Positions 21,422-64,000 of a stretch of DNA of 64,000 nt are shown piece by piece. The stretch spans positions 47,864,001 through 47,928,000 of the forward strand of contig CM126221.1 of the NCBI GenBank assembly GCA_052327205.1, given 5' to 3'. Numbering within the stretch: the first letter of the stretch is position 1; each line of letters starts with the position of its first letter. Source of the DNA: Somniosus microcephalus (Eukaryota). The position numbers and the translations under genes are program-made. The notes beneath the pieces were generated by a model, which saw only the letters and a program-made list of their open reading frames with translations, was not told where the DNA came from and made no database searches.

Positions 21422-21724
21422 AGGTGCAATATAACATGGATAAATGAGAGGTTATCCACTTTGGTGGCAAAAACAGGAAGGCAGATTATTATCTGAATGG
21501 CAATAGATTGGGAGAAGGGGAAGTGCAATGAGCCATGGCTAACAGTTAAGATTAGGATAAAAACATAACCAATTCTCTGAAACACAATGGAGTATTAAGA
21601 AAGTGGTGTTGGGGCCTCCACTACTTGCATCATACCTAGTTCGCAAAGTTAAGCTGACCACAATACAGAAAGGTCCAAGTACATTGGAGAGACCAAATGC
21701 AGATTGGGGGTTCGCTTTGCTGAA

Positions 21725-42989: not shown

Positions 42990-45345
42990 CTGATGAATTC
43001 TTAAAGTGCATTTAGGAGAGCTTTTTGAGCCAGCATGTAGAAAGCCCTACAAGAGAGGGAATGTAGCCGGGCAAGTGGTAGAAGTGTCAGTAGGAGAGCA
43101 TTTTGGTGACAGTGACCATAATTCAGTGAGATTTAAGGTAGTCATGGAAAAGGACAAAGATGGACTGGAAATAAAGGTTCTAAATTGGGGGAAGGCTAAT
43201 TTTAATATGATAAGGCAGGATCTGGCCAAAGTGGACTGGGATCAGCTACTTGTAGGAAAATCCACATCAGAGCAGTGGGAGTCTTTCAGAAAGGAAATAG
43301 AGAGATTACAATGCCAACATGTTCCCGTAAAGGTCAAGGGTGGGACCAACAAGCCCAGGGAACCCTGGATGTCAAGGGATATGCAAGAATGGATTAGGAA
43401 AAAAAGGGAGGCTTTTGGCAGATACAAAGGACTAAAAACAGTGGAAGCCCTAGAGGAGTATAGAAAGTGCAGGGGGGTACTTAAAAAAGAAATTAGGAGA
43501 GCGAAGAGGGGGCATGAAAAAACACTGATGGGCAAAATAAAGGAAAATCCCAAGGTGTTTTATAAGTATATTAAGGGCAAGAGGAGGGCCCATTAGGGAC
43601 CAAAGTGGCAATCTGTGTGTAGAGCCGGAAGATGTGGGTGAGGTTTTAAATGAATATTTTACATCTGTGTTCACTATGGAGAAGGACGATGTAGGCATAG
43701 AAATCAGGCAGGGGGATTGTGATATACTTGAACAAATTAGTATTGAGAGGGAGGAGGTACTAGCAGTTTTAGCGGGCTTAAAAGTGGATAAATCCCCAGG
43801 CCCAGACGAGATGTATCCCAGGCTGCTGTGTGAGGCAAGGGAGGAGATTGCAGGGGTTCTGACACAAATTTTCAGAACCTCTCTGGCCACAGGGGAGGTG
43901 CCAGAGGACTGGAGGACAGCTAACGTAGTACCATTATTCAAGAAGGGTAGTAGGGATAAACCAGGGAATTACAGGCCAGTCAGCCTAACATCAGTGGTAG
44001 GGAAATTATTGGAAAAAATTCTGAGGGACAGAATTAGTCTCCACTTGGAGAGGCAAGGATAGTCAGCATGGTTTTGTCAGGGGGAGATCATGTCCAACCA
44101 ATTTGAATTTTTTGAAGGGGTGACTAGGTGTTTGGATGAGGGTAATGCAGTTGATGTAGTCTACATGGACTTCAGTAAGGCTTTTGACAAAGTCCCACAT
44201 GGGAGACTGGTCAAGAAGCTAAGAGCCCATGGGATCCAGGGCAATTTGGCACATTGGATCCAAAATTGGCTTAGTGGCAGGAGGCAGAGGGTGATGGTCG
44301 AAGGTTGTTTGTGTGACTGGAAGCCTGTGTTCAGTGGTGTACCGCAGGGATCGGTGCTGGGTCCTTTGCTGTTTGTAGTGTACATTAATGATTTAGATAT
44401 GAATGTAGCAGGTATGATCAGTAAGTTTGCAGATGACATGAAAATTGGTGGAGTGGTAAATAGCGAGGAGGGAAGCCTCAGGCTACAGGACGATATAGAC
44501 GGGTTGGTCAGATGAGCAGAAAAGTGGCAAATGGAATTTAACCCTGAAAAGTGTGAGGTGATGCATTTTGGGTGGACTAACAAGGCAAGGGAATACACAA
44601 TGAATGGTAGGACCTTAGGAAGGACAGAGGATCAGAGGGACCTTGGTGTGCATGTACATAGATCCCTGAAGGCAGCAGTACAGGTAGATAAGGTGGTTAA
44701 AAAGGCATATGGGATACTTGCCTTCATTAGCCGAGGCATAGAATATGAGAGCAGGGAGGTTATGATGGAGCTGTACAAAACGCTAGTTAGGCCGCAGCTG
44801 GCATACTGTGTGCAGTTCTGGTCGCCACACTATAGGAAGGATGTGATTGCACTGGAGAGGATGCAGAGGAGATTCACCAGGATGTTACCTGGGCTGGAGC
44901 GCTTCAGCTATGAAAAGAGACTGGACAGGCTGGGGTTGTTTTCCTTAGAGCAGAGAAGGCTGAGGGGGGACCTGATTGAGGTGTACAAAATTATGAGGGG
45001 CATAGATAGGGTAGATAGAAAGGAACGTTTCCCCTTAGTAGAGGGGTCAATAACCAGGGGGCATAGTTTCAAGGTAAGGGGCAGGAGGTTTAGAGGGGAT
45101 TTGAGGAAAAACTTTTTCACCCAGAGGGTGGTTGGAATCTGGAACTCACTGCCTGAAAGGGTGGTAGAGGCAGGAACTCTCACAACATTCAAGAAGCATT
45201 TAGATGAGCACTTGAAACGCCATAGCATACAAGGTTACGGACCAAGTGCTGGAAAATGGGATTAGAATAGATAGGGCTTGATGGCCGGCGCAGACACGAT
45301 GGACCGAAGGGCCTCTTTCTGTGCTGTATGACTCTATGGCTCTAT
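42990..45345 (+). mobile_element. CR1 LINE of a second family, ORF2 from the endonuclease end to the 3' UTR, with stops and frameshifts
   Basis: GDSDHNSV (endonuclease C-terminus), KSPGPD, YMDFSKAFDKVPH, GVPQGSVLGP, KFADD and FFTQRVV; tail GACTCTATGGCTCTAT. Confidence 0.93.
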
Positions 45346-46699
45346 ATAGGCAGATGAGTATTCCTTAAGTTCATTCTAAGTGTTGTCGCTCATTTTGCCT
45401 TCACAGAAATGGCATACAATCGCCTTCCATAGAAGCTGCAGGAAGCAGCTAACTTGGCACCCTGTCACAATTCCAAAATTTGGCATTTAGCAGCCCAATT
45501 AAACTCACCTGGGCGATTTAGATAAAGAGAATGAGGGGGGAACTGAGCATAGAGGAGCAGAAGGAGGGACAAGAGGAATCTGCAACAACTGCCTGGGCAG
45601 TGGACTCAAGACCTCTGTGGCCCGACTTTCAAAAGAAGAATGCTTTCAAAGCATGCTAGCCTGTTGCAGTCATTGGGTGATGTAGTCAGCAAGCTTCCGC
45701 AACATGATGGCAAGTGTAGAGGAGTGTGGGGTCCTGATGCACAGAATATAAAATATAGACATCCTTGGAGTGGGTAACTGCCCCAGCACCATCTGCTGCA
45801 CAGCTTTGTACAGCTGAGACCTTGTTCCAGTTTTGGGTGTTCTCCTGAATGCTCTCACTGATGCAATACAGGCTTTTATCTACAGTGTGGCCTTCTCAAT
45901 GGACAGGCTCACAGATGAGGCTGCTCAGTGCAGTTCCTGTCATGGGGTTTGTCAAACTTCAGATCGGTGGGCAGATTGTTAAAGGTCAGGAGAAGGTGCA
46001 GGTTGGAACAGAGGATATTGGTGCTTTCTCTTTAAATGACTCTACTTCCATAATTATCTGCACAGGGGCCTGAAAGCGGGCAAGGCCAGGATGTCCCACA
46101 GCAGTGAATGAACAGTCGCCTGAAGCCGACCCATCTAGTGTTGTGGCTGGTGGAGACTGAGAGCCACCTCGGGTCCTGCATCCTGACACTAATACACAGC
46201 TGCCATCCTTCTGCCCTGTTCCTGCCTTAGGGAATACTTAGACGAAGCACCAGGCTAGTTAGCCATGCACAAAAGACACCCACTGTTAGAAAGGGGAAGC
46301 ACTCTGATGGAAAGAATTAAGTTGACAGTTGACAATTTGGACATCTGTACAATAAATGTGTTGGCTGGAGATTAGGCTGTGTGCAAAGTCCTTTTGATGT
46401 CACTGGCTGTTGAGGTTTCTGTCAGTAGTGGAATGGTGGTGATTGGGAAAGTGAATGGATTCTGTGTAGGTTTTTCAGTGATGTTTTTATTGCAGAGGAA
46501 GGTCAAGAGGGAGGGATGGGATCTAACTGTTATACTAGATGGCATATTTAAGGGAAAAGTTCCAGGATGAGATTTCCCCAGATGGTTCAGCCAGTCGGAA
46601 CCTGACTGCCCTGGAGTCTTTCAGGAGCCTTGCCTTTGTCATGTGACAAATCCTACTGTTTCTCCTCTGGCTTGTTCCACTTTTTGCTTCTCCAGATGG

Positions 46700-47150
46700 A
46701 TGCCCCCGTCCTATAAGGTGTACACAGTATGCGACTATGATTCTAGATATCTTCCCTGGATTACATTGTACGGCAGTCCCTCAATGATCCAGGCATTGGA
46801 ACTTTTGCTTCAGAATGCCAGTGTTGTTTTCAATGGCCACTCTACTGAGCTTCATATCATTCTGCTTTATTAAATGGAGCCCTCAGGGATGTCGTTAACC
46901 ATGGTAACGGTGGATAGTCAAGGTCAGCTCACAACCAGCCCTTTGATCCTTGTCCTTCTACAAACCACGCTGGAATGGTCACTTGTCTGAGGATGAAGGC
47001 ATCGTGCAAGCTGGCAGAGAACCTGGCATTCACCTGCATAATTTTGTGCAGTGACCGCACACTGGCTGGGCGTTGATAGAATAGCATTCCCTTTGATTCA
47101 TTTAAGGGGCACTGCACGGGAGCACACTGCAGCCACAGTGGTGGAGGGGG
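46700..47150 (-). pseudogene. PIF/Harbinger (HARBI1-like, DDE_Tnp_4) transposase remnant
   Basis: The minus strand gives IMQVNARFSASLHDAFILRQ, GWL*ADLDYPPLPWLTTSL and RVAIENNTGILKQKFQCLDH*G....PGKISRIIVA, matching the HD, GD.GY and IE..IG.LK.RF.CL motifs. Confidence 0.8.
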
Positions 47151-47453
47151 TAGAACGGACCTGGTGTGACACCACGTTATAAGTGCTTTTACATTTGGCA
47201 TTTCTGTAGTTTAGGTCACAGGAGCGTGACGTCTGTATGCCAGCTCCCTGCTCTTACACTGCTAAAACAATCTCTTTCATCCCAAAAAAGCAAGAGGTTA
47301 TGGTTCTCACCATTGGGATAAGAGAGCTGGTTTTTGCAAAGTTGTGTTGAAGTACTGAAGGAGTACTGTGTTGTTGGCTAAACCAAGGCCCACGGTACTA
47401 TTCAGAAAACAGTACAAATTCTCCAAATAATCAATAGGTCAATGTGACCCTTC

Positions 47454-47513
47454 TGTAGTGTCCGAGTATCAATAATACACGGACTGCAGGAGAACAATAA
47501 TAACAGGTGTTTA
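47454..47513 (-). mobile_element. Possible 3' (U5) end of an LTR, cut off by the Tx1 array
   Basis: The minus strand reads CAGTAAACACC...GTGTATTATTG...GGACACTACA: an AGTAAA polyA-like signal and an ACACTACA terminus as in TG...CA LTRs. No PBS follows. This is inference from only 60 bp. Confidence 0.4.
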
Positions 47514-47593
47514 CTGAACAGAGGGTACTCTTTTGTTTGTACCAAAAAAAAACAAATTGACTGTAAACAGAAGTTCAACTAAAACTTAACAAA

Positions 47594-50500
47594 TCAAATT
47601 AAAATGTGGTTATCCGGGATGATGATGCACTCCAGTCCCCGCGGCGCCCACCGGTCGCGGAAATACTCAAGCGCACCGGCGGACACTGCGTGCTCCATCT
47701 CCAGGGCCACCCGGGCGCGAACATGGCCGCGGAAGAGAGGCAGGCAATCCGGCTGGACGACCCCCTTGACCGCCCGCTGCCAGGACCAATTGATGGCTCT
47801 TTTAGCCAGGCCCAGGAGCAGGCCCACAAGGAGGTCCTCCAACCTATCCGCTCCCCTCCGCACCGGGTGACCGTAGATCAAGAGCGTGGGACTGAAGTGC
47901 AACCAAAAATCGAGGAGCAGCCCCTTCAAGTAATGAAAGAGGGGCTGCAACCTCTCACACTCTATCTAAATGTGAAACACGGACTCCTCCAGGCCGCAAA
48001 AAATGCAGGCTGCCTGGGAGTCCGTGAACCTACTTAAAACCTTATTGCACGGGACCGCTCCGTGCAACACCCTCCAGGCCAAGTCCCCGATGGAACAAGG
48101 GAGGACTCCCGCGTAGAGAGCCCTCCATTGGGGACCTCCGCCACCGCCGGTTGGCAAGATGCCACGCCAAGGCGTGTCCGGACGGAAGACGAAGATGGCA
48201 AAGTGGAGAGTGTGCAGGAGCAGCCCGTACAGGAAACCCCTCCGCGCGGAATGAAAAGGCACGGAGGGTATTTCCTCGAGACGGCTCAAGTTGTGAGGCG
48301 CCGGTTCCCGAGGGGAGTTTCGGGGCCGGGCGCCGATGAGGAATTCCGTCCGAACGGGGGTAAGCTCGGACGGGATCGCCCCACGTGCTTGAGCCGCCTC
48401 GATACACCTAGTGAAGTCGGGGCCCAGTGCCGCTTTTACCGATTCGATGGTTTCGACCGCGAGCCGGACGTTGGCCCAGGACAGGCGCCATCCAGCCCGC
48501 TCCTCCGCCATCGAGCAGGTCCCCGACTCTGGTCACCTTGCCAGCCACAGCCCTACCCTCCGCCAGCCGCCCGAACCCGTGATCGTGGAGGTGCGGATTC
48601 CTGAGCAGCGGCTCCCGAAGGAGAGCCGCCGCTCCTGACGGGGGAGAGCTCCGCCTGGAAGCGACGTAGTTCCAAACCCATAGTAGTTCCTGGTAGAAGA
48701 CAGGCAGCTCCCGCAGGCCGGCACGCCTGCTGCCCACTTTCGCAAACAGGAGCTGCGTGTCGTAATTGAGGCCATGCAGCTGGCGGAAGAAAAACGTCGC
48801 CAGCGCACACCATCTCGGAGGATTCTCGACGTACAGGTATCTCTGCAGCGTCTGAAGACGGAAAGTCGCAGCCTGGGTGCGAAGGCACACCAGCGCCTGA
48901 CCGCCCTCCCTAAGCGGGAGACACAGAACCGCGGCAGAGACCCAGTGCTTCCTTTTGTCCCAGAAGAAGTCGATGAGCTTCTTCTGAATCTTGGCGACAA
49001 ACGCAGGGGGAGGGATCAAAGTGACCAACCGGTACCACAACATGGCGGCCACCAGCTGGTTTATGACCAGCGCTCGACCCCTGTAGGACAACACTCGGAG
49101 CAGTCCTGTCCAGCGTCCTAGGCGAGCGGTGACTTTGGCCTCCAGCTCTTGCCAGTTCGCCGGCCAAGCGTCCTCGGCAGGGCTAAGGTAGACTCCCAAA
49201 TAGAGGAGGTGCGTGGTGCTCCAGGCGAAAGGCCTGAACTCCTCCGGCAGGGAGTCCACCCGCCACTGACCCACCAGGAGTCCGGAACATTTCTCCCAGT
49301 TGATCTTGGCGGAGGATGCGTCCGAGTAAATCTGCTGGCATTCCCGCATCCTCCGCAAGTCAGCGGGATCCGTGACCATGAGGAGCACGTCATCGGCGTA
49401 AGCCGAGAGGACCACCTCCACGCCCGGCCCTTGCAGAGCCAGTCCCGTCAACCTCTTCCGCAAGAGGCGCAGGAAAGGCTCCACGCAAATGGCATATAAC
49501 TGACCGGACATGGGGCATCCCTGACGCACCCCCCTCCCGAAGCGAAGGGGCGCCGTCAAGGACCCGTTAACTTTAATCAGACACTCCGCGGCGGCGTACA
49601 GAAGTCGGATCCGGGCGACGAAATGCGTCCCGAACCCAAATGCGCGCAGAGTCCCGAAGAGATACTCGTGATCCACCCTGTCGAACGCCTTCTCCTGATC
49701 CAGGGAAAGGAAGGCGACCGACAGACCAGCCCTCTGGGAGTGGTGGACCAGGTCCCGGACCAGATGGATGTTATCGTGGATGGTTCGGCCCGGGACCGTG
49801 TAGGACTGGTCGGGGTGGATCATGTGGGCCAGCACGGTGCCAAGGCGAGCAGACATGGCCCTGGCAAAGATTTTATAGTCCGTGCTGAGGAGGGAGACCG
49901 GGCACCAGTTCTTAAGGAGGCGGAGATCGCCCTTCTTAGGCAGCAGGACAATGACCGCCCTGCGCCAAGAGAGGGGCATCTCCCCGGTCGCCAAACTTTC
50001 CCCCAGGACCCGCGCGTAGTCGCCCCCCAAGACGTCCCAGAACGCCCTGTGGAACTCCACGGTCAGCCCGTCCAGCCCCGGGGACTTTCCCCTAGAGAGC
50101 TGGCGGAGGGCGCCGGTCAGCTCCGCCAGACTTAGCGGAGCGTCCAATTTTTCGGCACCCTCCGGGCCAACCTTCGTCAGGTCCTCCCACAAAACTCTGC
50201 GTGCATCCTCGCTGGACGGATCCGGAGAGAACAGAGCCCCGTAATAGGCGCGGGTCTCCGCGCTGATTCCCTCCGGATCCGAGACCAGAGATCCGTCGTC
50301 GGCCAGCAGCCCCAAGAGCTGCTTACGGACCCCCCGTCTTTTTTCCAGCGAGTAGAAGAAGGGGGAGCCGCGGTCCAGGTCCCGCAGGAGCTGGATCCGC
50401 GACCTCACGTACGCACCTCGGGACCCGACGAGCTGCAGGTCCTTCAGCGCGCCCTTCTTCTCTTCGTACACCTTCCGCAGGGCCGGGTCCTCGACGACCT

Positions 50501-51473
50501 GACCGAGACGGGACTCCAGGTCGAGCACCTCCTTCTCCAACCGCCCGACCCGGGCCTCCCGCCTCTTGGTCGACCCCTTCGCGTACTCCTGACAGAAGAG
50601 ACGGATGTGAGCCTTGCCCACATCCCACCATAGCCTCAAGGAGGGGAAGCCCCCCTGCTTCCTTCTCCAGTCGGCCCAGAATCGACGAAACGAATCCCGG
50701 AACCGTGCGTCCTCCAGCAGCAGGTTGTTAAAATGCCAGTACACGGACCCGCCCCGCGCGCGCAGCGGAGCGAGCTCCGCCCACACCAGGTGGTGGTCCG
50801 TGCACGGCACCGGCCGCATGGAAGCTGCCGGAACGCAGGAGACGAACGCCCGGGAAATGTAGAGGCGGTCGATTCTGGACCTTCCTCCCCCAGACCTCAC
50901 GCTAGTGAAGGCGCTGGAGTCGGGGTGGAGATTTCGCCAGACGTCCACCAAGTCGAAGGACCCAACCAGGTCCCTCAACTTCTCCATCGCCGCCGGGCTT
51001 CGCGGGGGACCCGAACGGTCCCTCGCCTCGAGGGTGCAGTTAAAATCCCCCCCGAGGATGACGCACTCGCCCACGTCGATGGAGCCCAAGAGAGCGGACA
51101 CTTCTTCGAAGAAGCGCACTTGCTGCGCACTGGTCTGAGGGGCGTACACGTTCACTAGATGGAGCGGCACGCCCCCCAGGCGAACAGTGACATGGAGCAA
51201 GCGGCCCGGCACGTGCTCCTTGACCCCCAAGATCTCCGGCTGAAAATGCGGGGCCAGCAAGATAGCCACCCCGCTGGAATTGTTGGAGAGGTGACTCATG
51301 CTGACCCCTCCTTGCCACTCCAGGAGCCACGTAGCTTCGTCTCCCGGAACGGTGTGGGTTTCTTGCAGGAAGCACACCGCATACTTCCCGTCCCGAAGGA
51401 CCGAGAAGTTATTGAATCTGCGGCGCGCCTCCCTGCTGCCGTTGATGTTGAGGCTGGCTATGATTATCTTCAT
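47594..51473 (-). pseudogene. Tx1 ORF2 (APE endonuclease, RT, CCHC), frameshifted near 48485
   Basis: Same protein as 54706-58605 up to GWMAP, then out of frame because of a 20-bp deletion; the C-terminal part is further split (ORFs 47966-48511 and 47594-47950). Confidence 0.9.
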
Positions 51474-51504
51474 GTCAGAAGCATAGTGCAACCTCTACCT
51501 ACAC

Positions 51505-53652
51505 CTAACGGGGCGAGGAAGCGCAGCTGCTGGTCCGCCGCCACTTCCTCAGCAGCCCAGTGAGAAACGTTGTGAGCCGACGCAGCTCGAGCGGGTTCAC
51601 ACCCTCGTCCGCGCCCAAGATCTTAACGGCGGCGCGGACGGAATCGATGAGCAGCGCCAGCTCCGACCACCTGTCGAGGGCCAGCCGGACCTTATTGCGC
51701 TGACCCAGGCACGTGGCCATAAAATCCCGGAGTTCCCTTACGGAAATGAGGGGAGACTCGGCAAGGGGCACGAGGTCATCCATCGCCACGTCGGCGCTGG
51801 AGTCCGAATCGTCCTCCGTGCCCATCACCGAGTCCCCATCCTCCTCCAGGGGGTCGTCACCAGCGGCCGACCCGTCCGCCGCGCAGTGTGAAGTGAACGA
51901 CTCGGCTGCGCCAGCCAGCCCCGCCTCCGCCCGGATCCCACCCCCAGGATCGGCGGCAGAGGATTTCTCCCTGGGCTCCTCTAGGGGTGCCGGGCCAGAA
52001 GGCGGCGGCGGTTCAGAGCTCCCCTCCGCCTCAGACGCCGGAACGACCGGGGAGAGAACAATTTCCAGCTCCTCCAGTACGTCCGGCACCAGAGACGCAG
52101 CCAGGGGGCCATCCTCCTCCCCGCCACCAACCTCCGACCCAGCGGACGGGGGGTTTTGAATTAAAAGCTCTACCAGGACGAGCATCCCCTGGGAGACGTC
52201 CGGGTCGCATTGGGCGAGCTCATTATCCTCGAGCTCGCCCGACCCAGCCCCCAGGCTGCCCGACCCGGCGAGGGGTAACGACACCGATAAAAGGTCAACT
52301 TCAATTACTGCCGCGGGTTGTTCCGCAACCCCCCCCACGGGCAGGGTCTCATCCCCATCCCCGGGAGGCACGTGCTGGACAGACACATCTGCCTCAGCCT
52401 CCCGAGGGACAGGCGACCCCTGCCGATCGCTGGTGATGACGACAGCGCTGGGGGGGCGGGGGGGCGCAGTACCCGCGGCGGGCGACGACTCCCCCTGCTC
52501 GGAGGGACCTTCCTCCTCCCGGTCCTCCTCCTCATCCAGGGGGTCGCGCCTTCTTTTTAGCACGGAGGGAGCGAGGGAGACCTCCATGTCTGCAAAGGCC
52601 TCCTCCTCGACTCCCTCCGGCGGAGCAGGTTTGTCGGGTTCCTCGGGCCCGAGCCCGGCCGCAGGTATTGGCATTACCGCTGCGGCGGTTGCGGCCACAG
52701 GCTCGGGCACAGGGCCCCTCCCGCTCGCATCTGCCCTGATCAACTCCGCGAGGAGCGCGGGTGTAAGGGGCTCAAGGGGCAAGGGCTCACCATCCACGGG
52801 GGGGCCTGCCCCAAGGTGCTTCTTTTTTCCCCGCGCCTTCTTTCCGGCCGGACACGCTCCCTCCCCCCCGCCGGAGGCCTTGGTGGCATCGGCCCCCGAC
52901 GTCAACCGCGCATCAGACGTACTTGACGCGCGGGCAGATCCGGGGGGAAGGGCGGCGGCGGCGGCGCCAGCCTCGGCCGCACGAGATGATCCGGCGGCCT
53001 TGGAGGCAGGGCAGTTCCTCCTGATGTGCCCCACCTCCCTGCAGGCATGGCACCTCACACCGTCCGACGTCCAAAAGGCGCGGTAGGCGGTCCCCTCGTG
53101 GAGGACGACGAACGCCCCTTCAGTGTCCTCCTCCCGCGCCAGCTGGATAAACAGCTGGTGCCGGAAGGAGAAGACGTGGCGAAGGCTGGCCTCCCGGAAG
53201 CCGAGCGGGATGGGCGTGATCCCCGACCTCACCTCCCCAAGTTGTCGCAAATGGGGAAGGAGGAGCTCACCAGGAACATAGGGCGGGACGTTGGAAATAA
53301 TGATCCTCTGCGCGGTGGCCTCGAGAGGATCCACCGGCAGGAAGGTCCCGCCCACGGTGAGCCCCTTGGCGACAGCCAGGGACACCGCCCGCTCCGACCC
53401 CAGGAAGAACACAGCCTTCCCATACATTTTCGAGGCCGCGACGATGGCTGAGGGGCCGACAACCCCAGCCATGGCCTTGACGCAGGCCTCGATGGTCATA
53501 GTGGGGTGAGTGTAGCTCTTCACCCCAAGCTTTTTTGTTATTAATCGAAAAGGTGACGGGGCAGCAGGAACAGCGGGAGCAGCTGTGGCTGTGGCTACCA
53601 CTCTCGCATAGGTCCCGGCTGGCCCCGCCACCGGCGAAGATGCAGTCGCCAT
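51505..53652 (-). CDS. Tx1 ORF1 protein (RRM-like N-terminus, CCHC zinc knuckle, acidic/Pro-rich region), 715 aa
   Basis: ASKMYGKAVFFL and IISNVPPYV motifs; knuckle CHACREVGHIRRNC (CX2CX4HX4C). Confidence 0.9.
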   Translation of the reverse strand: MATASSPVAGPAGTYARVVATATAAPAVPAAPSPFRLITKKLGVKSYTHPTMTIEACVKAMAGVVGPSAIVAASKMYGKAVFFLGSERAVSLAVAKGLTVGGTFLPVDPLEATAQRIIISNVPPYVPGELLLPHLRQLGEVRSGITPIPLGFREASLRHVFSFRHQLFIQLAREEDTEGAFVVLHEGTAYRAFWTSDGVRCHACREVGHIRRNCPASKAAGSSRAAEAGAAAAALPPGSARASSTSDARLTSGADATKASGGGEGACPAGKKARGKKKHLGAGPPVDGEPLPLEPLTPALLAELIRADASGRGPVPEPVAATAAAVMPIPAAGLGPEEPDKPAPPEGVEEEAFADMEVSLAPSVLKRRRDPLDEEEDREEEGPSEQGESSPAAGTAPPRPPSAVVITSDRQGSPVPREAEADVSVQHVPPGDGDETLPVGGVAEQPAAVIEVDLLSVSLPLAGSGSLGAGSGELEDNELAQCDPDVSQGMLVLVELLIQNPPSAGSEVGGGEEDGPLAASLVPDVLEELEIVLSPVVPASEAEGSSEPPPPSGPAPLEEPREKSSAADPGGGIRAEAGLAGAAESFTSHCAADGSAAGDDPLEEDGDSVMGTEDDSDSSADVAMDDLVPLAESPLISVRELRDFMATCLGQRNKVRLALDRWSELALLIDSVRAAVKILGADEGVNPLELRRLTTFLTGLLRKWRRTSSCASSPR

Positions 53653-54705
53653 TCTGGGGTGCTTTTTTTAAGGGCTACACTCACCCCAAGTCACAGGCCT
53701 GAAGGTGTTAATGGCCTCGGTGTATATATATTTTTTTGTCCTCTATTGAGCAGAGGGAGCTGATTAAAATGAGGACACACCTCTCTCCTTATTGATTTAA
53801 ATTGGGAGAGGAGCCCTCGCCCTTCTGCTCAATTGGCAATTAATAAAATAGATGAAACTAAGGTGCCTTAGAAAGACAGGCAGAGAGAGACAAAGAGAGA
53901 GAGAGAGAGGTGGGGGGGTGGGAAGGAGGGAGGCCGCAAAGGGCAGTGTTGCCACTCAGGATGGTGGGTGGGTGTAGGCAGGGTTGCACTCTCTGATGGA
54001 AAAAGTCTTTGGTGATGGTGGTCTTCTGGCAGGGGGAGAAGACGTCTTCACCTGGAAAAGCTGGAGAAGCCCAGGCTTAGTCCTGCAACAGGTCTTAACG
54101 ATGTAATTAAATTAAATTAAGGACTTCACCTTGGGCAGCTCCAAGCTCTCCCAGGGCAGGCAATAGAAGGGATGCTAATTAGTGGTGTGTGTGGCCTAGC
54201 TTTTAACAAGAGCACACACACTACACCCCTTGATGATCCGGCCTTGCTTCTTCTTTTCTCCCCCCACCTAAAATACAAAGTCTTGGGAGAGTGCCCCAAA
54301 TAACACCCACCTGTAGATGTTCCAGATGAAGTTTTCTTCCCTCCTTTCAAGCAGTTGGTTTCTCTCCCCTCTCTCCCTCTCCTGAAGTGGAGGCCAAATT
54401 GGGGAGGCAGTGACAGAAAGGCCTCTCCCCTGGTTGATGTTGATGTAGGCCTCCTTTCTCCTTCTCCTCCTCTGTCCTCTCTCTCCAGACACCTCAGTTG
54501 ATGTAATGATGGTGGAGTTGGTGGTGGTGGTCCAACGTTCTCCTCCTCTTCCTGGTCAGGGGACCACCACTTTAATTCACTCTCCAAAGTCTGGCTGCTC
54601 CCTCTGCTCGTGCTTGCAGCTGAACAGAGGGTACTCTTTTATTTGGACCCAAAAAAAACCCAATTCGACTGTAAATAAACAAAAGTTCAACTAAAGCTTA
54701 ACAAA

Positions 54706-57700
54706 TCAAATTAAAATTTGGTTTTCCGTGTTGATGATGCACTCCAGTTCCCGCGGCGCCCACCGGTCGCGGAAATACTCAAGCGCACCGGCGGACACCG
54801 CGTGCTCCATCTCCAGGGCCACCCGGGCGCGAACATGGCCGCGGAAGAGATGCAGGCAATCCGGCTGGACGACCCCCTCGACCGCCCACTGCCTGGACCA
54901 ATTGATGGCTCTTTTAGCCAGGCCCAGGAGCAGGCCCACAAGGAGGTCCTCCAACCTGTCCGCTCCCCTCCGCACCGGGTGACCGTAGATCAAGAGCGTG
55001 GGACTGAAGTGCAACCAAAAATCGAGGAGCAGCCCCTTCAAGTAGTGAAAGAGGGGCTGCAACCTCTCACAATCCATATAAACGTGAAACACGGACTCCT
55101 CCAGGCCGCAAAAAATGCAGGCGGCCTGGGAGTCCGTGAACCTACTTAAAACCTTATTGCACGGGACCGCTCCGTGCAACACCCTCCAGGCCAAGTCCCC
55201 GATGGAACAAGGGAGGACTCCCGCATAGAGAGCCCTCCATTGGGGACCTCCGCTACCGCCGGTCGGCAAAACGCCACGCCAAGGCGTGTCCGGACGGTAG
55301 ACGAAGATGGCAAAGTGGAGAGTGTGCAGGAGCAGCCCGTACAGGAAACCCCTCCGCGCGGAATGAAAAGGCACGGAGGGTATTTCCTCGAGACGGCTCA
55401 AGTTGTGAGGCGCCGGTTCCCGAGGGGAGTTTCGGGGCCGGGCGCCGATGAGGAATTCCGTCCGAACGGGGGTAAGCTCGGACGGGATCGCCCCACGTGC
55501 TTGAGCCGCCTCGATACACCTAGTGGAGTCGGGGCCCAGTGCCGCTTTTACCGATTCGATGGTTTCGACCGCGAGCTGGACGTTGGCCCAGGACAGGCGC
55601 CGCGCCAGCTCCTCTGGCGCCATCCAGCCCGCTCCTCCGCCATCGAGCAGGTCCCCGACTCTGGTCACCTTGCCAGCCACAGCCCTACCCTCCGCCAGCC
55701 GCCCGAACCCGTGTTCGTGGAGGTGCGGATTCCTGAGCAGCGGCTCCCGAAGGAGAGCCGCCGCTCCTGACGGGGGAGAGCTCCGCCTGGAAGCGACGTA
55801 GTTCCAAACCCATAGTAGTTCCTGGTAGAAGACAGGCAGCTCCCGCAGGCCGGCACGCCTGCTGCCCACTTTCGCAAACAGGAGCTGCGTGTCGTAATTG
55901 AGGCCATGCAGCTGGCGGAAGAAAAACGTCGCCAGCGCACACCATCTCGGAGGATTCTCGACGTACAGGTATCTCTGCAGCGTCTGAAGACGGAAAGTCG
56001 CAGCCTGGGTGCGAAGGCACACCAGCGCCTGACCGCCCTCCCTAAGCGGGAGACACAGAACCGCGGCAGAGACCCAGTGCTTCCTTTTGTCCCAGAAGAA
56101 GTCGATGAGCTTCTTCTGAATCTTGGCGACAAACGCAGGGGGAGGGATCAAAGTGACCAACCGGTACCACAACATGGCGGCCACCAGCTGGTTTATGACT
56201 AGCGCTCGACCCCTGTAGGACAACACTCGGAGCAGTCCTGTCCAGCGTCCTAGGCGAGCGGTGACTTTGGCCTCCAGCTCTTGCCAGTTCGCCGGCCAAG
56301 CGTCCTCGGCAGGGCTAAGGTAGACTCCCAAATAGAGGAGGTGCGTGGTGCTCCAGGCGAAAGGCCTGAACTCCTCCGGCAGGGAGTCCACCCGCCACTG
56401 ACCCACCAGGAGTCCGGAACATTTCTCCCAGTTGATCTTGGCGGAGGATGCGTCCGAGTAAATCTGCTGGCATTCCCGCATCCTCCGCAAGTCAGCGGGA
56501 TCCGTGACCGTGAGGAGCACGTCATCGGCGTAAGCCGAGAGGACCACCTCCACGCCCGGCCCTTGCAGAGCCAGTCCCGTCAACCTCTTCCGCAAGAGGC
56601 GCAGGAAAGGCTCCACGCAAATGGCATATAACTGACCGGACATGGGGCATCCCTGACGCACCCCCCTCCCGAAGCGAAGGGGCGCCGTCAAGGACCCGTT
56701 AACTTTAATCAGACACTCCGCGGCGGCGTACAGAAGTCGGATCCGGGCGACGAAATGCGTCCCGAACCCGAATGCGCGCAGAGTCCCGAAGAGATACTCG
56801 TGATCCACCCTGTCGAACGCCTTCTCCTGATCCAGGGAAAGGAAGGCGACCGACAGACCAGCCCTCTGGGAGTGGTGGACCAGGTCCCGGACCAGATGGA
56901 TGTTATCGTGGATGGTCCGGCCCGGGACCGTGTAGGACTGGTCGGGGTGGATCATGTGGGCCAGCACGGTGCCAAGGCGAGCAGACATGGCCCTGGCAAA
57001 GATTTTATAGTCCGTGCTGAGGAGGGAGACCGGGCGCCAGTTCTTAAGGAGGCGGAGATCGCCCTTCTTAGGCAGCAGGACAATGACCGCCCTGCGCCAA
57101 GAGAGGGGCATCTCCCCGGTCGCCAAACTTTCCCCCAGGACCCGCGCGTAGTCGCCCCCCAAGACGTCCCAGAACGCCCTGTGGAACTCCACGGTCAGCC
57201 CGTCCAGCCCCGGGGACTTTCCCCTAGAGAGCTGGCGGAGGGCGCCGGTCAGCTCCGCCAGACTTAGCGGAGCGTCCAATTTTTTGGCGCCCTCCGGGCC
57301 AACCTTCGTCAGGTCCTCCCACAAAACTCTGCGCGCATCCTCGCTGGACGGATCCGGAGAGAACAGAGCCCCGTAATAGGCGCGGGTCTCCGCGTTGATT
57401 CCCTCCGGATCCGAGACCAGAGATCCGTCGTCGGCCAGCAGCCCCAAGAGCTGCTTACGGACCCCCCGTCTTTTTTCCAGCGAGTAGAAGAAGGGGGAGC
57501 CGCGGTCCAGGTCCCGCAGGAGCTGGATCCGCGACCTCACGTACGCGCCTCGGGACCCGACGAGCTGCAGGTCCTTCAGCGCGCCCTTCTTCTCTTCGTA
57601 CACCTTCCGCAGGGCCGGGTCCTCGACGACCTGACCGAGACGGGACTCCAGGTCGAGCACCTCCTTCTCCAACCGCCCGACCCGGGCCTCCCGCCTCTTG

Positions 57701-58605
57701 GTCGACCCCTTCGCGTACTCCTGACAGAAGAGACGGATGTGAGCCTTGCCCACATCCCACCATAGCCTCAAGGAGGGGAAGCCCCCCTGCTTCCTTCTCC
57801 AGTCGGCCCAGAATCGACGAAACGAATCCCGGAACCGTGCGTCCTCCAGCAGCAGGTTGTTAAAATGCCAGTACACGGACCCCCCCCGCGTGCGCAGCGG
57901 AGCGAGCTCCGCCCACACCAGGTGGTGGTCCGTGCACGGCACCGGCCGCATGGAAGCTGCCGGAACGCAGGAGACGAACGCCCGGGAAATGTAGAGGCGG
58001 TCGATTCTGGACCTTCCTCCCCCAGACCTCACGCTAGTGAAGGCGCTGGAGTCGGGGTGGAGATTTCGCCAGACGTCCACCAAGTCGAAGGACCCAACCA
58101 GGTCCCTCAACTTCTCCATCGCCGCCGGGCTTCGCGGGGGACCCGAACGGTCCCTCGCCTCGAGGGTGCAGTTAAAATCCCCCCCGAGGATGACGCACTC
58201 GCCCACGTCGATGGAGCCCAAGAGAGCGGACACTTCTTCGAAGAAGCGCACTTGCTGCGCACTGGTCTGAGGGGCGTACACGTTCACTAGATGGAGCGGC
58301 ACGCCCCCCAGGCGAACAGTGACATGGAGCAAGCGGCCCGGCACGTGCTCCTTGACCCCCAAGATCTCCGGCTGAAAATGCGGGGCCAGCAAGATAGCCA
58401 CCCCGCTGGAATTGTTGGAGAGGTGACTCATGCTGACCCCTCCTTGCCACTCCAGGAGCCACGTGGCTTCGTCTCCCGGAACGGTGTGGGTTTCTTGCAG
58501 GAAGCACACCGCATACTTCCCGTCCCGAAGGACCGAGAAGTTATTGAATCTGCGGCGCGCCTCCCTGCTGCCGTTGATGTTGAGGCTGGCTATGGTTATC
58601 TTCAT
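54706..58605 (-). CDS. Tx1 ORF2 protein, intact (~1300 aa; likely ATG start MKITIASLNING at 58605)
   Basis: APE motifs SLNING, FLQETH, GGDFN, SRIDR and TDH; RT motifs KSPGLDG, LDQEKAFDRV, GVRQGCP, YADD and YLGV; C-terminal CIFCGLEESVFHVYMDC. Confidence 0.95.
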   Translation of the reverse strand: MKITIASLNINGSREARRRFNNFSVLRDGKYAVCFLQETHTVPGDEATWLLEWQGGVSMSHLSNNSSGVAILLAPHFQPEILGVKEHVPGRLLHVTVRLGGVPLHLVNVYAPQTSAQQVRFFEEVSALLGSIDVGECVILGGDFNCTLEARDRSGPPRSPAAMEKLRDLVGSFDLVDVWRNLHPDSSAFTSVRSGGGRSRIDRLYISRAFVSCVPAASMRPVPCTDHHLVWAELAPLRTRGGSVYWHFNNLLLEDARFRDSFRRFWADWRRKQGGFPSLRLWWDVGKAHIRLFCQEYAKGSTKRREARVGRLEKEVLDLESRLGQVVEDPALRKVYEEKKGALKDLQLVGSRGAYVRSRIQLLRDLDRGSPFFYSLEKRRGVRKQLLGLLADDGSLVSDPEGINAETRAYYGALFSPDPSSEDARRVLWEDLTKVGPEGAKKLDAPLSLAELTGALRQLSRGKSPGLDGLTVEFHRAFWDVLGGDYARVLGESLATGEMPLSWRRAVIVLLPKKGDLRLLKNWRPVSLLSTDYKIFARAMSARLGTVLAHMIHPDQSYTVPGRTIHDNIHLVRDLVHHSQRAGLSVAFLSLDQEKAFDRVDHEYLFGTLRAFGFGTHFVARIRLLYAAAECLIKVNGSLTAPLRFGRGVRQGCPMSGQLYAICVEPFLRLLRKRLTGLALQGPGVEVVLSAYADDVLLTVTDPADLRRMRECQQIYSDASSAKINWEKCSGLLVGQWRVDSLPEEFRPFAWSTTHLLYLGVYLSPAEDAWPANWQELEAKVTARLGRWTGLLRVLSYRGRALVINQLVAAMLWYRLVTLIPPPAFVAKIQKKLIDFFWDKRKHWVSAAVLCLPLREGGQALVCLRTQAATFRLQTLQRYLYVENPPRWCALATFFFRQLHGLNYDTQLLFAKVGSRRAGLRELPVFYQELLWVWNYVASRRSSPPSGAAALLREPLLRNPHLHEHGFGRLAEGRAVAGKVTRVGDLLDGGGAGWMAPEELARRLSWANVQLAVETIESVKAALGPDSTRCIEAAQARGAIPSELTPVRTEFLIGARPRNSPREPAPHNLSRLEEIPSVPFHSARRGFLYGLLLHTLHFAIFVYRPDTPWRGVLPTGGSGGPQWRALYAGVLPCSIGDLAWRVLHGAVPCNKVLSRFTDSQAACIFCGLEESVFHVYMDCERLQPLFHYLKGLLLDFWLHFSPTLLIYGHPVRRGADRLEDLLVGLLLGLAKRAINWSRQWAVEGVVQPDCLHLFRGHVRARVALEMEHAVSAGALEYFRDRWAPRELECIINTENQILI

Positions 58606-58636
58606 GTCAGAAGCATAGTGCAACCTCTACCTACAC

Positions 58637-60793
58637 CTAACGGGGCGAGGAAGCGCAGCCGCTGGTCAGCCGCCACTTCCTCAGCAGCCCAGTGAGAAAC
58701 GTTGTGAGCCGACGCAGCTCGAGCGGGTTCACACCCTCATCCGCGCCCAAGATCTTAACGGCGGCGCGGACGGAATCGATGAGCAGCGCCAGCTCCGACC
58801 ACCTGTCGAGGGCCAGCCGGACCTTATTGCGCTGACCCAGGCACGTGGCCATAAAATCCCGGAGTTCCCTTACGGAAATGAGGGGAGACTCGGCAAGGGG
58901 CACGAGGTCATCCATCGCCACGTCGGCGCTGGAGTCCGAATCATCCTCCGTGCCCATCACCGAGTCCCCATCCTCCTCCAGGGGGTCGTCACCAGCGGCC
59001 GACCCGTCCGCCGCGCAGTGCGAAGCGAACGACTCGGCCGCGCCAGCCAGCCCCGCCTCCGCCCGGATCCCACCCCCAGGATCGGCGGCAGAGGATTTCT
59101 CCCTGGGCTCCTCTAGGGGTGCCGGGCCAGAAGACGGCGGCGGTTCAGAGCTCCCCTCCGCCTCAGACGCCGGAACGACCGGAGAAACCGGGGAGAGAAC
59201 AATTTCCAGCTCCTCCAGTACGTCCGGCACCAGAGACGCAGCCAGGGGGCCATCCTCCTCCCCGCCACCAACCTCCGACCCAGCGGACGGGGGGTTTTGA
59301 ATTAAAAGCTCCACCAGGACGAGCATCCCCTGGGAGACGTCCGGGTCGCATTGGGCGAGCTCATTATCCTCGAGCTCGCCCGACCCAGCCCCCAGGCTGC
59401 CCGACCCGGCGAGGGGTAACGACACCGATAAAAGGTCAACTTCAATTACTGCCGCGGGTTGTTCCGCAACCCCCCCCACGGGCAGGGTCTCATCCCCATC
59501 CCCGGGAGGCACGTGCTGGACAGACACATCTGCCTCAGCCTCCCGAGGGACAGGCGACCCCTGCCGATCGCTGGTGATGACGACAGCGCTGGGGGGGCGG
59601 GGGGGCGCAGTACCCGCGGCGGGCGACGACTCCCCCTGCTCGGAGGGACCTTCCTCCTCCCGGTCCTCCTCCTCATCCAGGGGGTCGCGCCTTCTTTTTA
59701 GCACGGAGGGAGCGAGGGAGACCTCCATGTCTGCAAAGGCCTCCTCCTCGACTCCCTCCGGCGGAGCAGGTTTGTCGGGTTCCTCGGGCCCGAGCCCGGC
59801 CGCAGGTATTGGCATTACCGCTGCGGCGGTTGCGGCCACAGGCTCGGGCACGGGGCCCCTCCCGCTCACATCTGCCCTGATCAACTCCGCGAGGAGCGCG
59901 GGTGTAAGGGGCTCAAGGGGCAAGGGCTCACCATCCACGGGCGGACCTGCCCTAAGGTGCTTCTTTTTTCCCCGCGCCTTCTTTCCGGCCGGACACGCTC
60001 CCTCCCCCCCGCCGGAGGCCTTGGTGGCATCGGCCCCCGACGTCAACCGCGCATCAGACGTACTTGACGCGCGGGCAGATCCGGGGGGAAGGGCGGCGGC
60101 GGCGGCGCCAGCCTCGGCCGCACGAGACGGTCCGGCGGCCTTGGAGGCAGGGCAGTTCCTCCTGATGTGCCCCACCTCCCTGCAGGCATGGCACCTCACA
60201 CCGTCCGACGTCCAAAAGGCGCGGTAGGCGGTCCCCTCGTGGAGGACGACGAACGCCCCTTCAGTGTCCTCCTCCCGCGCCAGCTGGATAAACAGCTGGC
60301 GCCGGAAGGAGAAGACGTGGCGAAGGCTGGCCTCCCGGAAGCCGAGCGGGATGGGCGTGATCCCCGACCTCACCTCCCCAAGTTGTCGCAAATGGGGAAG
60401 GAGGAGCTCACCAGGAACATAGGGCGGGACGTTGGAAATAATGATCCTCTGCGCGGTGGCCTCGAGAGGATCCACCGGCAGGAAAGTCCCGCCCACGGTG
60501 AGCCCCTTGGCGACAGCCAGGGACACCGCCCGCTCCGACCCCAGGAAGAACACAGCCTTCCCATACATTTTCGAGGCCGCGACGATGGCTGAGGGGCCGA
60601 CAACCCCAGCCATGGCCTTGACGCAGGCCTCGATGGTCATAGTGGGGTGAGTGTAGCTCTTCACCCCAAGCTTTTTCGTTATTAATCGAAAAGGTGACGG
60701 GGCAGCAGGAACAGCGGGAGCAGCTGTGGCTGTGGCTACCACTCTCGCATAGGTCCCGGCTGGCCCCGCCACCGGCGAAGATGCAGTCGCCAT
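58637..60793 (-). CDS. Tx1 ORF1 protein, 718 aa
   Basis: As unit 1 ORF1, plus a 9-bp in-frame extra segment (VSP). Confidence 0.92.
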   Translation of the reverse strand: MATASSPVAGPAGTYARVVATATAAPAVPAAPSPFRLITKKLGVKSYTHPTMTIEACVKAMAGVVGPSAIVAASKMYGKAVFFLGSERAVSLAVAKGLTVGGTFLPVDPLEATAQRIIISNVPPYVPGELLLPHLRQLGEVRSGITPIPLGFREASLRHVFSFRRQLFIQLAREEDTEGAFVVLHEGTAYRAFWTSDGVRCHACREVGHIRRNCPASKAAGPSRAAEAGAAAAALPPGSARASSTSDARLTSGADATKASGGGEGACPAGKKARGKKKHLRAGPPVDGEPLPLEPLTPALLAELIRADVSGRGPVPEPVAATAAAVMPIPAAGLGPEEPDKPAPPEGVEEEAFADMEVSLAPSVLKRRRDPLDEEEDREEEGPSEQGESSPAAGTAPPRPPSAVVITSDRQGSPVPREAEADVSVQHVPPGDGDETLPVGGVAEQPAAVIEVDLLSVSLPLAGSGSLGAGSGELEDNELAQCDPDVSQGMLVLVELLIQNPPSAGSEVGGGEEDGPLAASLVPDVLEELEIVLSPVSPVVPASEAEGSSEPPPSSGPAPLEEPREKSSAADPGGGIRAEAGLAGAAESFASHCAADGSAAGDDPLEEDGDSVMGTEDDSDSSADVAMDDLVPLAESPLISVRELRDFMATCLGQRNKVRLALDRWSELALLIDSVRAAVKILGADEGVNPLELRRLTTFLTGLLRKWRLTSGCASSPR

Positions 60794-61779
60794 TCTGGGG
60801 TGCTTTTTTTAAGGGCTACACTCACCCCAAGTCACAGGCCTGAAGGTGTTAATGGCCTCGGTGTATATATATATTTTTTTGTCCTCTATTGAGCAGAGGG
60901 AGCTGATTAAAATGAGGACACACCTCTCTCCTTATTGATTTAAATTGGGAGAGGAGCCCTCGCCCCTCTGCTTCAATTGGCAATTAATAAAATAGATGAA
61001 ACTAAGGTGCCTTAGAAAGACAGGCAGAGAGAGACAAAGAGAGAGAGAGAGAGAGGTGGGGGGGGGGTGGGAAGGAGGGAGGCCGCAAAGGGCAGTGTTG
61101 CCACTCAGGATGGTGGGTGGGTGTAGGCAGGGTTGCACTCTCCGATGGAAAAAGTCTTTGGTGATGGTGGTCTTCTGGCAGGGGGAGAAGACGTCTTCAC
61201 CTGGAAAAGCTGGAGAAGCCCAAGCTTAGTCCTGCAACAGGTCTTAACGAGGTAATTAAATTAAATTAAGGACTTCACCTTGGGCAGCTCCAAGCTCTCC
61301 CAGGGCAGGCAATAGAAGGGATGCTAATTAGTGGTGTGTGTGGCCTAGCTTTTAACAAGAGCACACACACTACACCCCTTGATGATCCAGCCTTGCTTCT
61401 TCTTTTCTCCCCCCACCTAAAATACAAAGTCTTGGGAGAGTGCCCCAAATAACACCCACCTGTAGATGTTCCGGATGAAGTTTTCTTCCCTCCTTTCAAG
61501 CAGTTGGTTTCTCTCCCCTCTCTCCCTCTCCTGAAGTGGAGGCCAAATTGGGGAGGCAGTGATAGAAAGGCCTCTCCCCTGGTTGATGTTGATGTAGGCC
61601 TCCTTTCTCCTTCTCTGTCCTCTCTCTCCAGGCACCTCAGTTGATGTAATGATGGTGGAGTTGGTGGTGGTGGTCCAACGTTCTCCTCCTCTTCCTGGTC
61701 AGGGGACCACCACTTTAATCCACTCTCCAAAGTCTGGCTGCTCCCTCTACTCGTGCTTGCAGCTGAACAGAGGGTACTC

Positions 61780-64000
61780 TTTTATTTGGACCCAAAAAAA
61801 ACCAATTCGACTGTAAATAAACAAAAGTTCAACTAAAGCTTAACAAATCAAATTAAAATTTGGTTATCCGTGTTGATGATGCACTCCAGTCCCCGCGGCG
61901 CCCACCGGTCGCGGAAATACTCAAGCGCACCGGCGGACACCGCGTGCTCCATCTCCAGGGCCACCCGGGCGCGAACATGGCCGCGGAAGAGATGCAGGCA
62001 ATCCGGCTGGACGACCCCCTCGACCGCCCGCTGCCTGGACCAATTGATGGCTCTTTTAGCCAGGCCCAGGAGCAGGCCCACAAGGAGGTCCTCCAACCTG
62101 TCCGCTCCCCTCCGCACCGGGTGACCGTAGATCAAGAGCGTGGGACTGAAGTGCAACCAAAAATCGAGGAGCAGCCCCTTCAAGTAGTGAAAGAGGGGCT
62201 GCAACCTCTCACAATCCATATAAACGTGAAACACGGACTCCTCCAGGCCGCAAAAAATGCAGGCGGCCTGGGAGTCCGTGAACCTACTTAAAACCTTATT
62301 GCACGGGACCGCTCCGTGCAACACCCTCCAGGCCAAGTCCCCGATGGAACAAGGGAGGACTCCCGCATAGAGAGCCCTCCATTGGGGACCTCCGCTACCG
62401 CCGGTCGGCAAAACGCCACGCCAAGGCGTGTCCGGACGGTAGACGAAGATGGCAAAGTGGAGAGTGTGCAGGAGCAGCCCGTACAGGAAACCCCTCCGCG
62501 CGGAATGAAAAGGCACGGAGGGTATTTCCTCGAGACGGCTCAAGTTGTGAGGCGCCGGTTCCCGAGGGGAGTTTCGGGGCCGGGCGCCGATGAGGAATTC
62601 CGTCCGAACGGGGGTAAGCTCGGACGGGATCGCCCCACGTGCTTGAGCCGCCTCGATACACCTAGTGGAGTCGGGGCCCAGTGCCGCTTTTACCGATTCG
62701 ATGGTTTCGACCGCGAGCCGGACGTTGGCCCAGGACAGGCGCCGCGCCAGCTCCTCCGGCGCCATCCAGCCCGCTCCTCCGCCATCGAGCAGGTCCCCGA
62801 CTCTGGTCACCTTGCCAGCCACAGCCCTACCCTCCGCCAGCCGCCCGAACCCGTGTTCGTGGAGGTGCGGATTCCTGAGCAGCGGCTCCCGAAGGAGAGC
62901 CGCCGCTCCTGACGGGGGAGAGCTCCGCCTGGAAGCGACGTAGTTCCAAACCCATAGTAGTTCCTGGTAGAAGACAGGCAGCTCCCGCAGGCCGGCACGC
63001 CTGCTGCCCACTTTCGCAAACAGGAGCTGCGTGTCGTAATTGAGGCCATGCAGCTGGCGGAAGAAAAACGTCGCCAGCGCACACCATCTCGGAGGATTCT
63101 CGACGTACAGGTATCTCTGCAGCGTCTGAAGACGGAAAGTCGCAGCCTGGGTGCGAAGGCACACCAGCGCCTGACCGCCCTCCCTAAGCGGGAGACACAG
63201 AACCGCAGCAGAGACCCAGTGCTTCCTTTTGTCCCAGAAGAAGTCGATGAGCTTCTTCTGAATCTTGGCGACAAACGCAGGGGGAGGGATCAAAGTGACC
63301 AACCGGTACCACAACATGGCGGCCACCAGCTGGTTTATGACCAGCGCTCGACCCCTGTAGGACAACACTCGGAGCAGTCCTGTCCAGCGTCCTAGGCGAG
63401 CGGTGACTTTGGCCTCCAGCTCTTGCCAGTTCGCCGGCCAAGCGTCCTCGGCAGGGCTAAGGTAGACTCCCAAATAGAGGAGGTGCGTGGTGCTCCAGGC
63501 GAAAGGCCTGAACTCCTCCGGCAGGGAGTCCACCCGCCACTGACCCACCAGGAGTCCGGAACATTTCTCCCAGTTGATCTTGGCGGAGGATGCGTCCGAG
63601 TAAATCTGCTGGCATTCCCGCATCCTCCGCAAGTCAGCGGGATCCGTGACCGTGAGGAGCACGTCATCGGCGTAAGCCGAGAGGACCACCTCCACGCCCG
63701 GCCCTTGCAGAGCCAGTCCCGTCAACCTCTTCCGCAAGAGGCGCAGGAAAGGCTCCACGCAAATGGCATATAACTGACCGGACATGGGGCATCCCTGACG
63801 CAGCCCCCTCCCGAAGCGAAGGGGCGCCGTCAAGGACCCGTTAACTTTAATCAGACACTCCGCGGCGGCGTACAGAAGTCGGATCCGGGCGACGAAATGC
63901 GTCCCGAACCCGAATGCGCGCAGAGTCCCGAAGAGATACTCGTGATCCACCCTGTCGAACGCCTTCTCCTGATCCAGGGAAAGGAAGGCGACCGACAGAC
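61780..64000 (-). mobile_element. Tx1-clade retrotransposon, unit 3 (3' part; ORF2 open from the window edge to the stop at 61848)
   Basis: At least 700 aa of uninterrupted RT/CCHC region, near-identical to unit 2. Confidence 0.93.

Follow-up and report, generated by a model that had tools for sequence, protein, structure and literature searches.

How does a head-to-tail row of whole retrotransposons, each parted from the next by the same 17 bp, come into being? The question is raised by a 64,000-nt stretch of Somniosus microcephalus DNA (contig CM126221.1, positions 47,864,001 to 47,928,000; hereafter the window), in which positions 47514-64000 are occupied by an array of Tx1-clade elements, with all element features on the minus strand. 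The best explanation, to which we give about an even chance of being right, is that a target-specific Tx1 element inserted repeatedly into a regenerated 17-bp duplication and that unequal exchange then reshaped the array.

The 17-mer CTGAACAGAGGGTACTC has exact matches solely at 47514-47530, 54620-54636 and 61763-61779. No further match at up to 3 mismatches was found within the window, and three matches were reached in 0 of 100 shuffles. Read in element sense, every visible 3' end (3/3) runs through a short A-run into the 17-mer, which comes after AATAAA+A in each case and before both visible 5' ends (2/2). The spacer is identical at the two head-to-tail junctions and at the one visible edge, as in R1-type arrays. 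Its edge copy (47514-47530) is followed by non-element flank, the copy at 54620-54636 lies between the 3' end of unit 2 and the 5' end of unit 1, and that at 61763-61779 between the 3' end of unit 3 and the 5' end of unit 2. The spacings of 7106 and 7143 between successive 17-mers were reproduced, giving 7,106 nt for unit 1 (47531-54619, the full-length edge unit) and 7,143 nt for unit 2 (54637-61762, full-length with both open reading frames (ORFs) open). The original prediction spoke of at least three units of ~7.1 kb: two are whole, while of the third only 2,238 nt of its 3' part fall inside the window (61780-64000, with 716 open ORF2 codons and the 3' untranslated region (UTR)) before it runs off the end. 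The 3' tails are AAACAAAA in unit 1 and AAATAAAA in units 2 and 3, and there was no poly(A) beyond these short A-runs, as had been claimed. Both visible 5' junctions begin at the same base; that these ends are complete, also part of the prediction, is suggested by the ~970 nt of 5' UTR that precede ORF1. In self-comparison, a single long tandem match ran from 47514 to the end of the window, and beyond the edge 17-mer lies unrelated DNA. The coding part of the array has a GC content of 60-69% against 35-53% in the flank, and the CpG observed/expected ratio of unit 2 is 0.82, indicating that the array is young or little methylated.

The units are not exact copies. Units 1 and 2 differ by 77 substitutions over 7,100 aligned nt plus 8 indels, and units 2 and 3 by 8 substitutions over ~2,237 nt, in agreement with the earlier description. 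These differences bear on the possibility that one or two real copies were expanded by mis-assembly, since long near-identical tandem units are difficult to assemble. However, the differences are rich in transitions and CpG changes and show a coding-frame bias, unlike read errors, and the window contains no N characters. We consider such an artefact very improbable.

The array element belongs to the Tx1 clade of retrotransposons that lack long terminal repeats (non-LTR). ORF2 of unit 2 (54706-58605, ~1,300 codons) encodes an APE endonuclease, a reverse transcriptase (RT) and a C-terminal zinc-binding region, with catalytic motifs present. Pfam matches were Exo_endo_phos (E 8.6e-13), RVT_1 (E 5.4e-38) and, below the cut-off, zf-RVT (E 9.7e-5). 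Eight of the nine sequence motifs searched were present, including those of the endonuclease and RT, and the zinc-finger pattern as written gave no match. ORF1 of unit 2 (58637-60793, ~719 codons) carries a CCHC zinc knuckle, with zf-CCHC (E 0.0013) falling just under the curated Pfam cut-off; its Atlas look-alikes at 0.91-0.93 are CCHC/ZCCHC3-like clusters, which we take as a lead only. A purine-rich 5' UTR of ~970 nt follows in coordinate order (60794-61762). ORF1 of unit 1 (51505-53652) is open and lacks, by an in-frame deletion, 9 bp present in unit 2. ORF2 of unit 3 is open as far as it is visible. Among 59 matches, the closest full-length named relative was Xenopus Tx1L ORF2 (UniRef YTX2), with 50% identity over 99% (1,298 aligned residues). 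Identity was higher with partial shark (75% over 27%) and ray (69% over 33%) proteins, which makes a cartilaginous-fish host probable. The RT tree comprised 12 rows, namely the query, 10 named references and one CR1-like frame of the window; unnamed matches were excluded, and Keno, Kibi, Koshi, Dewa and the crocodilian Tx1 sequences were not part of it. In this tree the query paired with the ray Hemitrygon (support 98/97) and fell in a clade of 5 rows that also holds Tx1L, Acipenser and Caretta (support 98/98), and the Tx1 identity given in the prediction is borne out. The endonuclease beta-hairpin loop, which helps target recognition in related enzymes (PMC1919474), is 3 residues shorter in unit 2 ORF2 than in Tx1L, and because of this the target of the array element may differ from that of Tx1L. 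No other Tx1 pieces were present in the window outside the array, and in a prokaryotic genome collection none of 90 pattern matches was a relative of the element, as expected.

The 17-mer itself, standing after AATAAA+A where a target duplication is expected, would on this reading be a target-site duplication (TSD). The Tx1-clade APE endonuclease would nick a fixed site, and target-primed reverse transcription would leave a 17-bp duplication, so that with every insertion a target site would arise anew on the 5' side. The first to insert would have been an older member of the family, followed by younger, still-coding ones that entered the duplicate upstream. Crossing-over or conversion between neighbours, once or more, would then have joined a young body to the old tail, and some or most of the units may stem from unequal exchange. 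We infer this order of events and the independent insertion of more than one unit. A closely similar situation is known from the R1 arrays of Drosophila, in which an APE-type site-specific long interspersed nuclear element (LINE) forms whole copies parted by an identical TSD, and both insertion and unequal exchange have been invoked. R1 tandems in several Drosophila species were described as parted by a 14-bp TSD and explained by insertion into the TSD on the 5' side of a copy already present, whilst those of D. melanogaster were ascribed to amplification of one event (PMC2718515). For a large D. melanogaster R1 array with a 33-nt spacer, a dimer expanded by unequal exchange was proposed (10.1101/158386). 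However, R1 belongs to another clade and another host, and its target is 28S rDNA, while no rRNA, tRNA or snRNA was detected here. By analogy, the array would work like an R1 array with a member of the Tx1 clade, and its mechanism would not be new.

The edge unit carries the clearest trace of the history of the array. Units 1 and 2 showed 47 differences in the 5' 6,427 aligned nt (0.73%) and 30 in the last 673 nt (4.5%). The excess at the 3' end of the edge unit noted in the prediction is real and has the form of a step, not a gradient. The best single step gave a log-likelihood gain of 24.3, with a maximum of 9.4 among 300 permutations (0/300 reached 24.3), and lies near 48187 (support range 48159-48299). 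A second step inside unit 1 was considered and was unsupported (83/300 permutations), and the tail is evenly diverged, with 10, 7 and 13 differences by thirds. Private substitutions in units 1, 2 and 3 numbered 4, 2 and 2 over the shared inner 1,540 nt and 27, 3 and 0 over the outer 673 nt, and the inner 6.4 kb of unit 1 is about as near to unit 2 as unit 3 is (between-unit distance ~0.4-0.7%). Thirteen tail residues set unit 1 apart from units 2 and 3; with outside Tx1 proteins as outgroups, 5 pointed to unit 1 as the ancestral form, 4 to units 2/3, and 4 were ties. The 4 residues favouring units 2/3 represent decay in unit 1, including a stop codon. The tail (47531-48187) is what remains of an older family member, which has decayed in place as well, and not the product of decay alone, because ancestral and decayed residues are both present. 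Its stop codon lies at 47966-47968, and AATAAA is altered to AACAAA. Together with a 20-bp deletion between short direct repeats near 48490 (48489-48490), which causes a frameshift, the stop disrupts ORF2 of unit 1. The prediction had placed the oldest copy at the edge. The oldest sequence does lie there, but a uniformly old edge unit is rejected: the old part is the last ~670 nt only, and the remaining 6.4 kb is young. Insertion alone is insufficient to make such a mosaic, which requires that neighbouring copies crossed over or underwent conversion once or more, because an undisturbed old copy would diverge along its entire length and because, under the model of target-primed reverse transcription, pairing of a new cDNA with an old copy would renew the 3' end and not the 5' end. 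One possible route starts from an old, perhaps truncated copy; a young copy would enter its upstream duplication, and a deletion crossover would follow between the shared 3' ends. Unequal exchange, named as an alternative in the prediction, has thus left at least one event in the array.

Could unequal exchange have done everything? On this account one insertion or one dimer was amplified by unequal crossing-over alone. The 17-mer would be a TSD that arose once and was multiplied with the units, and the array a transposon-derived satellite in the making. The coding differences speak to this point. Between units 1 and 2, the inner coding differences were 18 synonymous and 16 non-synonymous (18/34; pN/pS, the ratio of non-synonymous to synonymous proportions, ~0.3), a synonymous excess over the 32-36% expected under nulls with transition and CpG bias (P 0.011-0.028), whereas those of the tail were neutral-like (6/23 synonymous, P 0.66). 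Selection on transposon proteins normally works through retrotransposition, and the bias therefore makes fresh input from active copies into the array likely, though the evidence is modest. Moreover, unit 2 has kept both ORFs open since its lineage split from the old tail; the probability that both would be stop-free after 1-2% neutral drift is 0.05-0.32, or 0.006-0.11 when frameshifts are counted. Growth by successive targeted retrotransposition, as predicted, gains modest support from the purifying selection on inner differences, but cannot be the entire process, given the recombination that the mosaic edge needs. On this modest evidence, duplication alone seems to fit the array poorly. Crossing-over alone nevertheless accounts well for the mosaic edge with its old part outermost and for units so close to each other, in which CpG-type changes make up 22 of the 45 inner differences, and the D. 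melanogaster R1 array has been explained likewise (10.1101/158386; PMC2718515). We judge this rival unlikely.

Several observations weigh against repeated insertion. Position and length are the same for the two 5' junctions and for the three A-runs, while independent insertions often vary, and every unit carries private changes at conserved residues; these two facts also favour crossing-over alone. The purifying-selection signal is modest in size, the contrast in synonymous share between the 5' and 3' parts reached only P 0.058, and units 2 and 3 showed no significant bias (3/8 differences synonymous, P 0.33). Neither an empty 17-mer site (at up to 3 mismatches) nor a solitary Tx1 copy was present within the 64-kb window. 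The visible flank contains no known RNA gene or microsatellite, and homology to a Harbinger transposase, the candidate host described below, ends ~390 nt short of the 17-mer. Tandem junctions of Drosophila non-LTR elements were reported to be mostly tail-to-truncated 5' end (10.1101/158386). Finally, the 17-mer pairs with the 5' end of the element and could belong to the element itself.

That last point deserves a fuller account. The 17 nt after AATAAA end in CA, which is ordinary cleavage-site spacing, and the 17-mer could therefore be part of the RNA, either as a 3' tail past the poly(A) signal or as a 5' head, with the family spreading as a self-targeting or read-through chain and not by entry into a host site. 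For the 17-mer at 54620-54636, pairing with nt 11-20 of the unit that follows was predicted, as a helix of 10 bp with -20.6 kcal/mol in the case of unit 1. A helix as good was obtained with 12 of 5,000 shuffled 17-mers, 12 of 5,588 17-mers from the flank and 0 of 182 other UTR windows, so that the chance of the hairpin is ~0.2%, though it was noticed post hoc. The rarity of such pairing among genomic 17-mers also tells against crossing-over alone. The 5' UTR also contains an 11-nt sequence that nearly repeats the core of the 17-mer and would suit a 17-mer owned by the element. However, the helix is weaker in unit 2 (-15.7; 8/182 windows as good; fold z -1.05, 29/200 shuffles), and in the GC-rich element body 39 of 704 windows pair as well as the hairpin. 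In addition, the edge 17-mer has no poly(A) after it, the version with a 5' head requires an exact 17-nt remnant at the edge, and no Rfam ribozyme or other family matched the junction (53500-55000; 9 weak matches, E up to 10). We regard ownership of the 17-mer by the element as unlikely on balance. If the hairpin is real, the 17-mer would have stood upstream of master copies for long, which suits a family-wide target or an array-bound life and not a one-off TSD.

Folding in silico also suggested an alternative partner for the 5' end. In the 5' UTR of unit 2 there is a 13-nt inverted repeat (nt 11-23 versus nt 860-872), which alone is not significant (25, 41 and 89 of 500 Markov simulations). 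The hairpin (pairing probability 0.97-1.0) displaces the long-range helix between the 5' end and nt 860-872, ~100 nt before ORF1: the probability of that helix was 0.54-0.97 without the 17-mer and 0.00-0.01 with it. One may picture an array-adapted element, in which the 17-mer would be target, AAUAAA-to-CA cleavage stretch and 5' strand of a hairpin capturing the 5' end of the next unit all at once. This modelled scheme strikes us as rather improbable. If true, monomer RNAs would adopt another fold than read-through RNAs, and the array would act as a source locus that feeds itself, a vertebrate retrotransposon satellite whose copies are kept under selection by retrotransposing back into it. 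The predicted fold of the junction consists of simple hairpins. An R2-type element headed by a ribozyme was also considered, and no known ribozyme was found at the 5' junction, where there may still be an undescribed one. Structure in the 3' UTR was unsupported (z -1.0 and 0.48). Further inverted repeats in the 5' UTR are a 13-nt pair 63 nt apart at 53745-53833, which reuses the purine-rich motif of the 5' end, and, at 54524-54570, a 10-nt pair without mismatch spaced by 27 nt.

The DNA beyond the edge of the array holds a candidate host element. At 46655-47126, ~390 nt past the edge 17-mer and on the strand of the array, lies the decayed C-terminal half of a PIF/Harbinger-type (DDE_Tnp_4) transposase, spread over two frames (best tblastn E 2e-19, profile E 3e-20). 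The full profile search of the flank gave 51 matches; 10 of the 10 scanned carry DDE_Tnp_4, and 16 were used to map the remnant. Other searches of the flank gave little: Pfam on six frames returned one weak match (E 0.075), a word-indexed protein search 0 of 665 candidates, and PDB nothing useful. The N-terminal half of the transposase was not found in the window, no transposase homology was detected in 47127-47513 nor a repeat of that stretch elsewhere in the window, and no Harbinger terminal repeats were recognisable in 44800-47530 among the 25 longest of 151 inverted pairs. One nt after the edge 17-mer, at 47498-47512 (minus strand), there is a 12/15 match, with the first 9 exact, to the Harbinger3_DR target consensus, taken from PMC3016246. 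The window holds 6 such matches against 4.97 expected, so that only the closeness of this one to the edge stands out (probability ~0.001-0.002 for a 30-nt zone, calculated post hoc). We treat this match as a lead only, and a Harbinger element as the host of the array likewise as a lead from the flanking sequence.

The same flank was inspected for other kinds of target. Rfam gave no match at the gathering score in the window, with chance-level hits only in 46500-47700; no tRNA was found in the window and no tandem repeat or microsatellite at the array edge. RNA-gene and microsatellite targets of the Keno, Kibi and Koshi types (U2 snRNA, (TC)n/(TTC)n) were thus not seen in the 3' flank, the visible one. 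Within the 390 nt between array and remnant there is a 26-nt imperfect inverted repeat (81%) with a 27-nt loop at 47260-47338, and a second 12/15 match to the Harbinger3_DR consensus (47321-47335) falls in one of its arms. A pyrimidine-rich stretch at 47484-47503 (minus strand) ends in CAG ~30 nt after the edge 17-mer and resembles, by eye, a splice acceptor or a U-rich downstream polyadenylation element.

A preference for DNA transposons has been described in the Tx1 clade. Tx1L of X. laevis, which shares with the array element the two-ORF layout, 50% identity in ORF2 and a common supported clade, inserts into the DNA transposon Tx1D (PMC4494074; PMC1919474). In crocodilians, Tx1-9_AMi is reported to prefer Harbinger elements, ~300 bp from the Harbinger 5' end, and tandem copies of the short interspersed nuclear element (SINE) SINEU-3, mobilised by Tx1, flank a 16-nt TSD (PMC4494074). 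Tx1-9_AMi, Tx1-Mar and SINEU-3 thus offer Tx1 families that prefer DNA transposons, in one case Harbinger, as well as TSD-spaced tandems. However, the SINEU-3 tandems are pairs of short non-autonomous SINEs, not 7-kb coding units, and the published TSD sequence differs. The present array consists of whole head-to-tail elements, and no such array of Tx1L was found in the literature searched. More generally, that literature, which did not cover the main Tx1 papers, Repbase or the letters of the 17-mer, yielded no array of whole Tx1 elements, no use of this 17-mer as a target and no shark Tx1 targets.

Insertion into a regenerated TSD together with unequal exchange is known from insects, and the mechanism is no surprise. 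This locus adds what is probably a vertebrate example, in which the 7-kb Tx1 units are whole and coding and the seam where an older family member meets a younger one can be seen. If the 17-mer is the true target, target choice in Tx1 would be directly testable on a 17-bp candidate site and an endonuclease that is open and has a changed hairpin loop, the array would be a natural sample of an early step from transposon to satellite, and the long fixed target of so compact an APE-type element would be of interest for site-specific retrotransposon tools.

Other elements were noted in the window. Fragments of a PIF1-type helicase at 17981-19437 (plus strand; Pfam PIF1 E 1.7e-37, Pif1_2B E 1.6e-17) are probably a Helitron remnant. 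RT-bearing LINE remnants, CR1-like by eye and 65-95% alike, occur at 8476-10113, 20457-21538, 42997-45265 and elsewhere, and the one at 43541-45265 is nearly open. A GC-rich 40-bp minisatellite of ~6 copies, with longer-period variants, occupies 30540-30799.

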